DNA of 64,000 nucleotides from the NCBI RefSeq assembly GCF_055900595.2, contig NZ_CM148325.1, one strand, 5' to 3'. Shown piece by piece: positions 6,270 to 56,684 of this stretch; position 1 is the first letter of the stretch, and each line of letters starts with the position of its first letter. The notes under the pieces are model-generated. The model saw only the letters and a program-made list of their open reading frames with translations, searched no databases and had not been told where the DNA came from. The translations under genes and the position numbers were made by a program.

Positions 6270-6492
6270 GTAAATTTAGGATTAATCCTGGAACTTTTTT
6301 TGTCGCCCAGCCAATGCTTTCAGTCGTGACTAATTTTCCTTGCAGAGGCTTGTCTGAAGCGGTTTCCGCGGTTTTCTTCTGTAAATTGTCGCTGACAAAA
6401 AAGATTAAACGTACCTTATACAAGACTTTTTTTTCATATGCCTGACGGAGTTCACACTTGTAAGTTTTCAACTACGTTGTAGACTTTACATC

Positions 6493-6625
6493 GCCAGGGG
6501 TGCTCGGCATAAGCCGAAGATATCGGTAGAGTTAATATTGAGCAGATCCCCCGGTGAAGGATTTAACCGTGTTATCTCGTTGGAGATATTCATGGCGTAT
6601 TTTGGATGATAACGAGGCGCAAAAA
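6493..6625 (+). promoter_or_regulatory. ompA long 5' UTR (stabilising leader; Hfq/MicA/RNase E target)
   Basis: GCCAGGGGTGCTCGGCATAAGCCGAAGATATCGGTAGAGTTAATATTGAGCAGATCCCCCGGTGAAGG...GCGCAAAAAATG matches the recalled ~133-nt ompA leader; boundary is from memory of the P2 start. Confidence 0.6.
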
Positions 6626-7678
6626 ATGAAAAAGACAGCTATCGCGATTGCAGTGGCACTGGCTGGTTTCGCTACCGTAGCGCAGGCCGCTCCGAAAGAT
6701 AACACCTGGTACACTGGTGCTAAACTGGGCTGGTCCCAGTACCATGACACTGGTTTCATCAACAACAATGGTCCGACCCACGAAAACCAACTGGGTGCAG
6801 GTGCTTTTGGTGGTTACCAGGTTAACCCGTATGTTGGCTTTGAAATGGGTTACGACTGGTTAGGTCGTATGCCGTACAAAGGCGACAACATCAATGGCGC
6901 ATATAAAGCTCAGGGCGTTCAACTGACCGCCAAACTGGGTTACCCAATCACTGACGATCTGGACATCTACACTCGTCTGGGTGGTATGGTATGGCGTGCA
7001 GACACCAAGGCTAACGTACCTGGTGGCGCATCCTTTAAAGACCACGATACCGGTGTTTCTCCGGTCTTCGCTGGCGGTGTTGAGTACGCGATCACTCCTG
7101 AAATCGCTACCCGTCTGGAATACCAGTGGACCAACAACATCGGTGACGCACACACCATCGGTACTCGTCCGGACAACGGCCTGCTGAGCCTGGGTGTTTC
7201 CTACCGTTTCGGTCAGGGCGAAGCAGCTCCAGTAGTTGCTCCGGCACCAGCTCCGGCACCGGAAGTACAGACCAAGCACTTCACTCTGAAGTCTGACGTT
7301 CTGTTCAACTTCAACAAAGCAACCCTGAAACCGGAAGGTCAGGCTGCTCTGGATCAGCTGTACAGCCAGCTGAGCAACCTGGATCCGAAAGACGGTTCCG
7401 TAGTTGTTCTGGGTTACACTGACCGCATCGGTTCTGACGCTTACAACCAGGGTCTGTCCGAGCGTCGTGCTCAGTCCGTTGTTGATTACCTGATCTCTAA
7501 AGGTATCCCGGCAGACAAAATCTCTGCACGTGGTATGGGTGAATCCAACCCGGTTACTGGCAACACCTGTGACAACGTGAAACAGCGTGCTGCGCTGATC
7601 GACTGCCTGGCTCCGGATCGTCGCGTAGAGATCGAAGTTAAAGGCATCAAAGACGTTGTAACTCAGCCGCAGGCTTAA
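6626..7678 (+). CDS. ompA: Outer membrane protein A (non-K-12 loop allele)
   Basis: ATG 6626 [21 protein letters not shown] signal peptide, beta-barrel domain, APAPAPAP hinge, C-terminal OmpA-like peptidoglycan-binding domain; ORF track start 6554 is an in-frame upstream extension. Confidence 0.95.
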
Positions 7679-7693
7679 GTTATCGTCTGATAG

Positions 7694-7721
7694 AAAAACC
7701 CCGCAGCTGCGGGGTTTTTTT
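7694..7721 (+). terminator. Rho-independent terminator of ompA
   Basis: AAAAACCCCGCAGCTGCGGGGTTTTTTT: GC stem CCCCGCAG/CTGCGGGG followed by T7 run. Confidence 0.7.
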
Positions 7722-26252: not shown

Positions 26253-26452
26253 TGCCGGATGTGGCGCACAAAACCAGCGGTTTCAACGGATTGTAGGCCT
26301 GATAAGACGCGTCAAGCGTCGCATCAGGCATTTGGGCACGGCTGCCGGATGCGGCGTGAACGCCTTATCCAGCCTACAAAACCAGCATTTTCAACGGACT
26401 TGTAGGCCTGATAAGACGCGTCAAGCGTCGCATCCGGCATTTGGGCTCAAAA
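26253..26452. repeat. REP/BIME cluster (several REP units) between ssuB and pepN
   Basis: Near-identical 50-bp units GGA(T/C)TTGTAGGCCTGATAAGACGCGTCAAGCGTCGCATC(A/C)GGCATTTGGGC at 26299-26348 and 26395-26445 plus GCCGGATGCGGCGTGAACGCCTTATCCAGCCTAC; classic REP palindromes. Confidence 0.75.
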
Positions 26453-32560: not shown

Positions 32561-32741
32561 GGTAGCGAAACGTTAGTTTGAATGGAAAGATGCCTGCAGA
32601 CACATAAAGACACCAAACTCTCATCAATAGTTCCGTAAATTTTTATTGACAGAACTTATTGACGGCAGTGGCAGGTGTCATAAAAAAACCATGAGGGTAA
32701 TAAATAATGATGAAGCGCAATATTCTGGCAGTGATCGTCCC

Positions 32742-32750
32742 TGCTCTGTT
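32742..32750. repeat. IS10 target-site duplication, left copy (TGCTCTGTT)
   Basis: 9-bp direct repeat identical to 34080-34088 and immediately flanking the IS10 termini; 9 bp is the IS10/Tn10 TSD length. Confidence 0.85.
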
Positions 32751-32796
32751 CTGATGAATCCCCTAATGATTTTGGTAAAAATCATTAAGTTAAGGT

Positions 32797-32865
32797 GGAT
32801 ACACATCTTGTCATATGATCAAATGGTTTCGCCAAAAATCAATAATCAGACAACAAAATGTGCGA
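32797..32865 (-). ncRNA. IS10 antisense RNA-OUT (pOUT transcript), predicted position
   Basis: Position inferred from established IS10 organisation (RNA-OUT ~69 nt, from about bp 115 outward to bp 47, overlapping the transposase start at bp 108, which here is 32858); not independently verified by folding. Confidence 0.45.
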
Positions 32866-34066
32866 ACTCGATATTTTACACGACTCTCTTTACCAATTCT
32901 GCCCCGAATTACACTTAAAACGACTCAACAGCTTAACGTTGGCTTGCCACGCCTTACTTGACTGTAAAACTCTCACTCTTACCGAACTTGGCCGTAACCT
33001 GCCAACCAAAGCGAGAACAAAACATAACATCAAACGAATCGACCGATTGTTAGGTAATCGTCACCTCCACAAAGAGCGACTCGCTGTATACCGTTGGCAT
33101 GCTAGCTTTATCTGTTCGGGCAATACGATGCCCATTGTACTTGTTGACTGGTCTGATATCCGTGAGCAAAAACGGCTTATGGTATTGCGAGCTTCAGTCG
33201 CACTACACGGTCGTTCTGTTACTCTTTATGAGAAAGCGTTCCCGCTTTCAGAGCAATGTTCAAAGAAAGCTCATGACCAATTTCTAGCCGACCTTGCGAG
33301 CATTCTACCGAGTAACACCACACCGCTCATTGTCAGTGATGCTGGCTTTAAAGTGCCATGGTATAAATCCGTTGAGAAGCTGGGTTGGTACTGGTTAAGT
33401 CGAGTAAGAGGAAAAGTACAATATGCAGACCTAGGAGCGGAAAACTGGAAACCTATCAGCAACTTACATGATATGTCATCTAGTCACTCAAAGACTTTAG
33501 GCTATAAGAGGCTGACTAAAAGCAATCCAATCTCATGCCAAATTCTATTGTATAAATCTCGCTCTAAAGGCCGAAAAAATCAGCGCTCGACACGGACTCA
33601 TTGTCACCACCCGTCACCTAAAATCTACTCAGCGTCGGCAAAGGAGCCATGGATTCTAGCAACTAACTTACCTGTTGAAATTCGAACACCCAAACAACTT
33701 GTTAATATCTATTCGAAGCGAATGCAGATTGAAGAAACCTTCCGAGACTTGAAAAGTCCTGCCTACGGACTAGGCCTACGCCATAGCCGAACGAGCAGCT
33801 CAGAGCGTTTTGATATCATGCTGCTAATCGCCCTGATGCTTCAACTAACATGTTGGCTTGCGGGCGTTCATGCTCAGAAACAAGGTTGGGACAAGCACTT
33901 CCAGGCTAACACAGTCAGAAATCGAAACGTACTCTCAACAGTTCGCTTAGGCATGGAAGTTTTGCGGCATTCTGGCTACACAATAACAAGGGAAGACTCA
34001 CTCGTGGCTGCAACCCTGCTTACTCAAAATCTATTCACACATGGTTACGTTTTGGGGAAATTATGA
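32858..34066 (+). CDS. IS10 transposase
   Basis: 402-aa [84 protein letters not shown]...; ATG at IS10 bp 108 as in canonical IS10. Confidence 0.95.
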
Positions 34067-34079
34067 GGGGATCTCTCAG

Positions 34080-34088
34080 TGCTCTGTT
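34080..34088. repeat. IS10 target-site duplication, right copy (TGCTCTGTT)
   Basis: Identical to 32742-32750; continues in frame into ompF codons [10 protein letters not shown]. Confidence 0.85.
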
Positions 34089-54234: not shown

Positions 54235-54270
54235 TCAAAAAACCAGCATTTGTTGAAATAGCCGCATATT

Positions 54271-56535
54271 CTACCCGTTATCCACTGGCACGCCAAACCA
54301 CTGATGATACCAACGAGGTAAAATTTGCTCTCTGAGGCTGCTAATCCGCCAGCCTTGCGCTGAAAAATTGACCGTTATTTGACCCTGATGTGGAGTATCG
54401 AGCCACTTATAACCCTGTTGTTGATAGCGATGTTTAACTTTGCTTGAGGGCAGTCGCCATGCGTTATAGCGCGATGCCGATGCGAGTGCCACTTTTCCAT
54501 TCACTCGCTGAATTAATGGCAACGATGATGAGGTATTACTGCCATGGTGAGGTACCTGAAGTAATGTTGCTTGTACTTGCTGCCAGTAACGGCTTAGCAT
54601 CTTTTGTTCAGCGGGGGCTTCAATATCACCGGTTAGGAGAATGCTATTCGTCCCGTCATCAACCTTAACCACACAGGAATGGTTATTTCCTTTATCGTTG
54701 CTACCTTGTAAAGGCCAGTGCACGCTGAAACGCAATCCTTGCCATTGCCACGCTTCGCCACGCACACAGGGCTGATGATGTTCCCAGCTTAAAGGGCTTC
54801 TGACCCATAACGTCGGCCAGGCTCGTAATATCGAGTCCAGCCCTCCCCGATGATCCAGATGTTCATGACTCAAAATGACGCCTTCTGGTTCAAGATTATG
54901 CCAGCGTAGCCAGGGGATAATCAGTTGTTGCCCACTATCCCCCTCCGGCCAGGCCAGTCCGGTGTCATAGAGAATCGCTTTACCGTTTCTGGCTATCACC
55001 ATTGCCAGCCCTTGCCCGACATCAAGCATGTACACCTGCCACGCGTCAGGTCGAGTTTTTTGCCACAGCGGCCAGCACATCAGCAAGCCTCCAGCCACAC
55101 ACATTGCCGGCAACGCTCGCCAGGCGTTTAATCGCCATACCACCAGTAAGAACCATGGGGAAAATGATAGCCATTGCCAACGTTCAGCAATGTTGATCCA
55201 CCCTTCCGGCAAACTCTTTAACCCCCAGAAAAGTAAAGCCAAAGACCGGTCGGCAAGAAACCATACTCCTTGCTCCACGATTAACGGCCCGCTTAAATGC
55301 ATAACCATCGCTGCGAGGATCAACGGAACCGTGATAAATGTCACCAGGGGAATTGCAAATAGGTTTGCAATAAACGAGGTCAGACTAATGCCATGAAATA
55401 TGACGATTTGCACAGGCATTAGCAGGAGCGTGATTCCCAGTTGTAGATGGATGAGGGCAACAACCGCGCGCAATACTGGCGGCAGTTGCCACTCCGGACA
55501 GGGAAACCACTGATACCAAAAAATCAGCGCCGCTACCGCAGCGGCAGAGAGCCATAAACTTTGCGAAAGAATGGCAACAGGATCCATCAGCAAAATTGCC
55601 GCCAGACAACATATCCATACATCCCAGCCACTCCATTGTCGTCCACTTAACTTAAGCATTCCCCAAATGGCAAGCGCCACCACGGTACGCAATGCAGGAG
55701 GTTGCATTCCCGTTAGCCAGGCATAAAAAGCAGCACAGCAGATTCCGCCAATTAATGGCATTTGCCAGTGGATCCAGCACCCAGGCAGAAAAACTTGCCC
55801 ACCGCGAATGAGTCCTGCAGCCAGCAACGCCGCAAAAGCGATGTGCAATCCTGATATCGCCATTAAATGCGCCGTTCCAGTATCACGCATGATATTTTTG
55901 ATTTCTTTGGGGACGGATAACCGTTCCCCCATACCTAATCCAAGAATAACCGCGTTCCACATATAGGGTTGCAGCGTTGTTTGTAGTGACGCCAGATACT
56001 GTGCACGCAGGCTACAATTCGGTTCAATGACACTTGCCTGCAGAAAACGGCCGGTGAGCGGTTGATGCTGGGCAATGGCATAACGCTGGCTATCAAAGCC
56101 GCCATCATTAAGTTGACCATGAACTGCACGAACTTTGAGTTTCATTGACCATACTTGTCCGGCACAAACCGCTTGCGGAAGATATTCGCCATACAGTACG
56201 AGGCCTGGCGCAGGGAATATACGTCGACCTTGTAGATGAGTAATTTGACCGTAATGAGTGGTCATGCCGTCAGTAGCAATGATCTCAACAATTGCATCCT
56301 GCGTCGAGCCAGTTAAGGTTTCTCCTGCCCACAAAATTTGCTTTGCTGCTAATATGCCCCAAACGAAAAACAGCAACGTCAGCGCGATATAACGGACGGT
56401 TTTAACAGGGATAAATGCCAGTACACAGGCGAAGATAGTCAGAAGCGCAAGGGTTACTGTCCCTGGCAATTGGGGCAAAATCAGCAACGGAAAAATTCCG
56501 CAAATTATGCATACTCCGACTGTCGTTATTTTCAT
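54271..56535 (-). CDS. ycaI: ComEC/Rec2-family inner membrane protein YcaI
   Basis: ATG 56535 MKITTVGVCIICGIFPLLILPQLPG... (754 aa); polytopic membrane domain plus C-terminal metallo-beta-lactamase-like region (...LSHEHLDHRGG...). Confidence 0.88.
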   Translation of the reverse strand: MKITTVGVCIICGIFPLLILPQLPGTVTLALLTIFACVLAFIPVKTVRYIALTLLFFVWGILAAKQILWAGETLTGSTQDAIVEIIATDGMTTHYGQITHLQGRRIFPAPGLVLYGEYLPQAVCAGQVWSMKLKVRAVHGQLNDGGFDSQRYAIAQHQPLTGRFLQASVIEPNCSLRAQYLASLQTTLQPYMWNAVILGLGMGERLSVPKEIKNIMRDTGTAHLMAISGLHIAFAALLAAGLIRGGQVFLPGCWIHWQMPLIGGICCAAFYAWLTGMQPPALRTVVALAIWGMLKLSGRQWSGWDVWICCLAAILLMDPVAILSQSLWLSAAAVAALIFWYQWFPCPEWQLPPVLRAVVALIHLQLGITLLLMPVQIVIFHGISLTSFIANLFAIPLVTFITVPLILAAMVMHLSGPLIVEQGVWFLADRSLALLFWGLKSLPEGWINIAERWQWLSFSPWFLLVVWRLNAWRALPAMCVAGGLLMCWPLWQKTRPDAWQVYMLDVGQGLAMVIARNGKAILYDTGLAWPEGDSGQQLIIPWLRWHNLEPEGVILSHEHLDHRGGLDSILRAWPTLWVRSPLSWEHHQPCVRGEAWQWQGLRFSVHWPLQGSNDKGNNHSCVVKVDDGTNSILLTGDIEAPAEQKMLSRYWQQVQATLLQVPHHGSNTSSSLPLIQRVNGKVALASASRYNAWRLPSSKVKHRYQQQGYKWLDTPHQGQITVNFSAQGWRISSLREQILPRWYHQWFGVPVDNG

Positions 56536-56684
56536 GCACCCTCCCTGTTTATAGAAAGTGTGCAACTTTGTTGAATGGTTGTCTGGTGGGAGTTTTGCGT
56601 TCCCCGAGGCACGTTCAGAAGAATTTAACGACAGGGTGAAAACTGCTCAAAACTCTGCGAGGCAGCTTCCAGTTCCAGATTAGA

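Follow-up and report, generated by a model that had tools for sequence, protein, structure and literature searches.

An intact Escherichia coli ompA gene that very probably belongs to the common long-loop-3 class

The DNA analyzed here (the window) is a stretch of 64,000 nucleotides from contig NZ_CM148325.1 of assembly GCF_055900595.2. Its genes run in the order helD-yccS-sxy-sulA-ompA-matP-ycbZ-fabA and onwards, in the reverse of the orientation found in MG1655. The order sxy-sulA-ompA-matP-ycbZ is the same in the window, in MG1655 and in strain 100117, which puts ompA at its orthologous chromosomal position. The gene encodes a 21-residue signal peptide, an 8-stranded barrel, a Pro/Ala hinge and a C-terminal peptidoglycan-binding OmpA domain (coordinates in Table 1). 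The Pfam family PF01389 (OmpA_membrane barrel) matched residues 23-199 of the product over its full profile (1-180, E = 1.2e-79), PF00691 matched residues 226-321 (E = 3.6e-24), and PF13505 was matched as well. A search of the PDB returned the full-length OmpA structure 3nb3 (E = 9e-228), the barrel structures 1qjp, 1bxw and 9fzd (E <= 1e-106) and the C-terminal domain structure 2mqe (E = 2.7e-92). The product is annotated as 'porin OmpA', WP_000750415.1, in the genomes that are identical to the window, and its hinge and C-terminal domain are 100% identical to those of K-12 in the protein alignment.

Table 1 Features of the ompA gene and of the IS10 insertion, in window coordinates
Feature	Position	Strand	Remarks
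sulA-ompA intergenic region	6270-6625	+	ompA promoter and long 5' UTR; pairwise alignment
ompA CDS	6626-7678	+	ORF list; ATG at 6626, 350 codons plus stop
Loop 1 codon N25 (AAC)	6761-6763	+	K-12-like; common long alleles P25 (CCT), some D25
Loop 2, DNIN (K-12 SVEN)	6884-6895	+	S66D, V67N, E68I at 6884-6892; N69 kept
Loop 3 (K-12 SNVYGKNH)	7010-7045	+	S108A, Y111P, four-residue insertion, N114D
M161L, CTG vs ATG	7181-7183	+	loop 4 / strand 8 boundary; motif GLLSLG
ompA intrinsic terminator hairpin	7699-7721	+	CCCCGCAGCTGCGGGG followed by a T run; pairwise alignment
IS10, 1329 bp	32751-34079		transposase ORF of 402 aa at 32858-34066, +
IS10 9-bp target duplication	32742-32750 and 34080-34088		TGCTCTGTT

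The regulatory sequences on both sides of the gene were compared with those of K-12 by pairwise alignment. The 215 bases 5' of the ompA ATG are identical in the two, with 4 substitutions lying farther upstream, and the terminator is intact, with a single base change relative to K-12 at the hairpin apex. Judged from the sequence, the expression signals of ompA are intact.

Eight complete genomes match the window at about 100% identity across 20 kb, and all others at 99% or less. These eight near-identical genomes include human stool isolates, strain 100117 (Gambia) among them, a Korean dog isolate and AST85. Identity to MG1655 over the 7 kb around ompA is 97.7%, indicating that the strain belongs to a natural, non-K-12 lineage. 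The sequence-only reading had reached the same view from the ompA loops, despite the IS10 that the strain carries; with 97.7% identity to K-12 and about 100% to natural isolates, that view holds, and the presence of IS10 is uninformative either way about K-12 ancestry. A K-12 derivative with an edited ompA was considered and rejected on the same 97.7% identity and on the 26 synonymous differences found within the gene itself.

The whole 64-kb window is collinear with strain 100117 at 99.97% identity, bar one 1329-bp insertion, the IS10. The element sits in ompF, 44 bp downstream of the ompF start codon as annotated in strain 100117, the nearest genome, which lacks the insertion. As IS10 lies within the coding sequence, the insertion disrupts ompF in the strain of the window. 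Of 5426 complete genomes, only one other shares the IS10-ompF junction: ET12567 (NZ_CP045457.1), a laboratory K-12 derivative, in which IS10 occupies the same ompF base as in the window (compared over 32691-32810), with orientation and target duplication also identical. There are 10 differences between the two IS copies, and the ET12567 locus as a whole is 98.5% identical to the window, which argues for independent insertions at an IS10 hotspot in ompF. Elsewhere in the window, local blastn against strain 100117 found two copies of about 70 nt with 94% identity in the ssuB-pepN intergenic region (26268-26337 and 26376-26446), which are probably REP/BIME-type repeats. For ycaI, a ComEC homologue at about 54270-56540 of the window, the annotation of strain 100117 gives a pseudogene containing an internal stop.

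Protein and codon alignments of the window gene with MG1655 ompA (b0957, NC_000913.3), which served as the K-12 reference, place every amino acid change in loop 2, in loop 3 or at position 161. In loop 2, 8 of the 9 bases of the three replaced codons are changed. Loop 3 is 12 bases longer than in K-12, in frame, and the counterpart of SNVYGKN spans 7010-7042. The sequence-only reading had described this gene as a non-K-12 allele with a loop 3 four residues longer, and the alignment bears it out in coordinates, residues and length. The K-12 loops that it gave are indeed those of MG1655, which differ from the window's. The same goes for its GLLSLG motif in place of GMLSLG, which is the M161L change at a position catalogued as polymorphic for M and L (PMC5413513), and for its statement that the amino acid variation is confined to the exposed loops, which holds for loops 2 and 3 with M161L in addition.

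At the DNA level, 40 of the 1041 aligned nucleotides differ from MG1655, and 26 codons spread along the whole gene differ synonymously. This indicates that the window and K-12 alleles are old lineages, and not a K-12 gene in which two loops have been edited. Six of the seven replaced codons fall among the 15 aligned codons of loops 2 and 3 and one among the other 331 (Fisher p = 1.5e-8), so that the clustering is not due to chance. Against K-12, the Nei-Gojobori dN reaches 0.37 in loops 2 and 3, compared with 0.003 for the remaining barrel and 0 for the C-terminal domain, on a background dS of about 0.1 (roughly 0.09-0.12); the loop values are crude, as they cover 15-19 codons, and the dS of the loops is saturated or unreliable. 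The pattern would fit diversifying or balancing selection as a putative cause, and the diversifying selection that had been put forward as a consistent reading of the loops agrees with it. An AlphaFold2 model built from a 10-sequence alignment of near-identical alleles had a mean pLDDT of 38, with the barrel below 50, and was unusable; the loops were therefore assigned from solved structures and published loop definitions.

We conclude, at a probability of roughly 95%, that the window carries an intact, normally regulated E. coli ompA of the long-loop-3 class, which is one of two main forms that the surface-exposed barrel loops take in nature. The observation and cautious interpretation made from the sequence alone were correct; what they missed is that this is a named and very common allele class with a solved structure, a polymorphism already described, abundant and structurally characterized. 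The long-loop form has been called ompA2 (Power 2006, as relayed in PMC5413513 and PMC9560509) and outer-loop patterns II/III and relatives (Liao 2017, 2022), and more recently 'OmpA-long' (2025, PDB 9FZD, PMC12259851) and 'loop 3b' (2026, PMC13108393). The window gene has a loop 3 of the long type at 7010-7042, the trait by which the ompA2/OmpA-long/loop 3b class is defined, and DNI in place of SVE at 6884-6892, again as in that class, and its loop 3 is identical to the loop in 9fzd and to the loop 3b peptide (PMC13108393). At position 25, where Liao patterns II and III have P, it has N (AAC, 6761-6763), which files the allele under an unnamed minor pattern and not under II or III.

The class is abundant. 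A 55-nt query across loop 3, which is unable to seed on the short allele, found the long loop 3 DNA in 38% of complete E. coli genomes (2058 of 5426). The whole gene was matched in all 5425 ompA-bearing complete genomes; in an even sample across the ranked list, about 40% of the rows had the long form (1052 nt) and the others the short one (1040 nt). According to the accounts of Power 2006 given in PMC5413513 and PMC9560509, the ompA2 class made up 43% of 524 isolates and was associated with reduced phage sensitivity. The exact OmpA protein, RefSeq WP_000750415.1, is found on at least 1000 contigs in a collection of 15 billion proteins. The nucleotide haplotype is rare, with 14 of the 5426 genomes at >= 99% identity over the gene. 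A 45-nt megablast query found the loop 2 neighbourhood in 31 of these genomes, a figure that is no count of DNI alleles because the rare synonymous variants beside loop 2 (AAT GGC ... TAT) leave no exact 28-nt word shared with other DNI alleles. These synonymous variants, at 6895-6904, are rare among E. coli long alleles, and AAT GGC is the Salmonella state.

Within the long-loop class, the window combines N25, DNI, the long loop 3, H149 in loop 4 and L161 with an alpha-type C-terminal domain (N203, G251). In the protein and codon alignments, the representative long alleles that were fetched have P25, or D25 in one case, and the window N25. The table of variable sites shows the same patchwork along the gene: the window agrees with K-12 at 6757-6763; at 6781-6798 and throughout loops 2 and 3 it agrees with the long alleles; private or rare synonymous states occur at 6895, 6898 and 6904; and the alleles that match it in the C-terminal part vary from site to site. 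Among 78 environmental isolates, N25 with DNI, the long loop 3 and H149 was reported in 2 (isolates 110 and 307), as an unnamed pattern (PMC5413513, Table 3A). The common long patterns in the same isolates were II (P25, N149; 20.5%) and III (with H149 instead; 14.1%), and N25 together with DNI was significantly under-represented (rho -0.75) (PMC5413513). We propose that two old allele classes have been kept within E. coli and reshuffled by intragenic recombination.

Because the strands, the hinge, the C-terminal domain, the 215 upstream bases and the terminator are unaltered, the allele changes the exposed surface only. The sequence-only reading had taken the loops to be receptor determinants for OmpA-specific phages and colicins with a part in host contact, and the literature agrees, for phages and colicins and for immune epitopes (PMC9560509, PMC12032242, PMC12259851, PMC13108393). 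Mutations in ompA that confer resistance to phages and colicins lie in loops 2 and 3 (PMC9560509, introduction). When eight ECOR ompA variants were put into MG1655 delta-ompA, the allele swaps changed the host range of Gp38 phages: narrow-host-range phages infected some loop combinations only, and broad-range phages infected all (PMC12032242). The nanobodies Nb01 and Nb39 are strictly specific for one OmpA isoform; in the crystal structures 9FZC and 9FZD the nanobodies contact all four OmpA loops, loop 3 especially, and Nb39 touches all four loops of OmpA-long (PMC12259851). Separate peptides for loop 3a (KSNVYGKN) and loop 3b were used in a 2026 study to measure anti-OmpA IgG (PMC13108393), and ompA allele swaps shift surface charge, hydrophobicity and attachment (PMC5413513, PMC9560509).

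By analogy, the window allele would alter which OmpA-dependent phages with Gp38-type adhesins and which colicins can dock, as well as which antibodies or nanobodies bind, and it may modestly affect surface charge and attachment. These receptor and epitope consequences are carried over from published experiments on the same loop sequences in related P25 alleles, for which effects of isogenic swaps on phage plating or antibody binding have already been reported. In practice, the allele would predict which phages, colicins, nanobody diagnostics (Nb39 rather than Nb01) and loop-peptide antibodies recognize the strain. Beyond strain typing its importance is small, since all of this follows from existing literature and the window makes no open question testable.

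We also considered whether the loop differences are a neutral lineage marker that travels with its chromosomal background and has no phage, colicin or immune effect. Nielsen 2020 (PMC6995065) attributes most of the distribution of ompA alleles to chromosomal history, which counts against our preferred explanation, and the whole 20-kb neighbourhood is that of a rare lineage, with only 8 genomes at >= 99% identity. A neutral marker is nevertheless rather unlikely, as the replacement changes are about 100-fold concentrated in the loops, identical loop states turn up, mosaic-fashion, on more than one nucleotide background, and in published swaps within a single background, phage infection, nanobody binding, surface charge and attachment were all affected. 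A more novel claim could be made, namely that N25 with DNI, the long loop 3 and L161 is a recombinant of both major classes with a receptor and epitope specificity of its own, evading for instance the narrow-host-range Gp38 phages that depend on the loop 2 of K-12, as well as Nb39 and other binders of the long form with P25; combined with the ompF knockout by IS10, it might then record phage, colicin or antibiotic selection on outer-membrane proteins. We regard this as a long shot.

The origin of the long form was examined with three Salmonella sequences as outgroups. In the 90% protein cluster to which the window product belongs, the Salmonella enterica sequences carry DNIN and L161 and have 12-15 residues in loop 3; Yokenella, a more distant relative, has a short loop 3. 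Since Salmonella shares DNIN, the long loop 3 and L161, the long form would be the ancestral-like one, and the K-12 form (SVEN, with a loop 3 four residues shorter) is probably derived, a polarity that the sequence-only reading had missed. The same likeness could be taken to mean that the segment from loop 2 to loop 3 was recently imported from another enterobacterial species such as Salmonella, making the ompA of this strain an interspecies hybrid; the DNIN codons, including AAT GGC, are indeed identical to those of Salmonella ompA, which also has the long loop 3 and L161. We rejected a recent import as very unlikely: the Salmonella loop 3 (SNTLGGESTKN) differs from that of the window, with a dN of 0.21 across the loops, the synonymous divergence from one Salmonella ompA DNA outside the loops (dS 0.32-0.46) is a typical between-species distance, and the same long loop 3 DNA is present in 38% of E. 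coli genomes, so that any transfer would be ancient and species-wide and not a feature of this strain. That the variant loops arose through errors in sequencing or assembly, or that the gene is disrupted, has next to no probability and is refuted by the reading frame of ompA, which is open and of full length, by the in-frame 12-base difference, which is exact in independent complete genomes from the Gambia, Korea, the USA and Japan, and by the crystallized protein, which has the same loops 2 and 3.

The long-loop-3 reading of the gene can finally be set against the systems that have been named. As ompA2 is described in PMC5413513 and PMC9560509 (after Power et al. 2006, Appl Environ Microbiol 72:7930), the likeness lies in the loop 3 motif ANVPGGASF and the loop 2 motif DNI. 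The PCR assay of Power, primed on the ANVPGGA codons, would, as it is outlined there, score the window gene as ompA2. The type ompA2, in these accounts bird isolate B194 and equal to Liao pattern II, has P25 and N149, whereas the window has N25 and H149. Liao pattern III differs from the window at loop 1 only (P against N), and the unnamed Liao pattern of isolates 110 and 307 is an exact match, the window's N203 and G251 being alpha-type. OmpA-long in PDB 9FZD, the Nb39 complex (PMC12259851), is identical to the window product over residues 21-195 except at two positions, having P25 and M161 where the window has N25 and L161; loops 2, 3 and 4 are identical. K-12 OmpA (P0A910; PDB 1BXW, 1QJP, 3NB3), which corresponds to ompA1, pattern I and OmpA-short, shares with the window the gene, the locus, the signal peptide, the strands, the hinge, the C-terminal domain and N25, and differs in SVE against DNI, in SNVYGKN against a loop 3 with four more residues, and in M against L at 161. 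The OmpA of Salmonella enterica resembles the window protein in DNIN, for which the codons GAC AAC ATC AAT GGC are the same as in the window, in a 12-15-residue loop 3 built on a GG..S.K(D/N)H frame and in L161, and differs from it in the residues of loop 3, in about 5-6% of residues overall and in a dS of 0.3-0.46.
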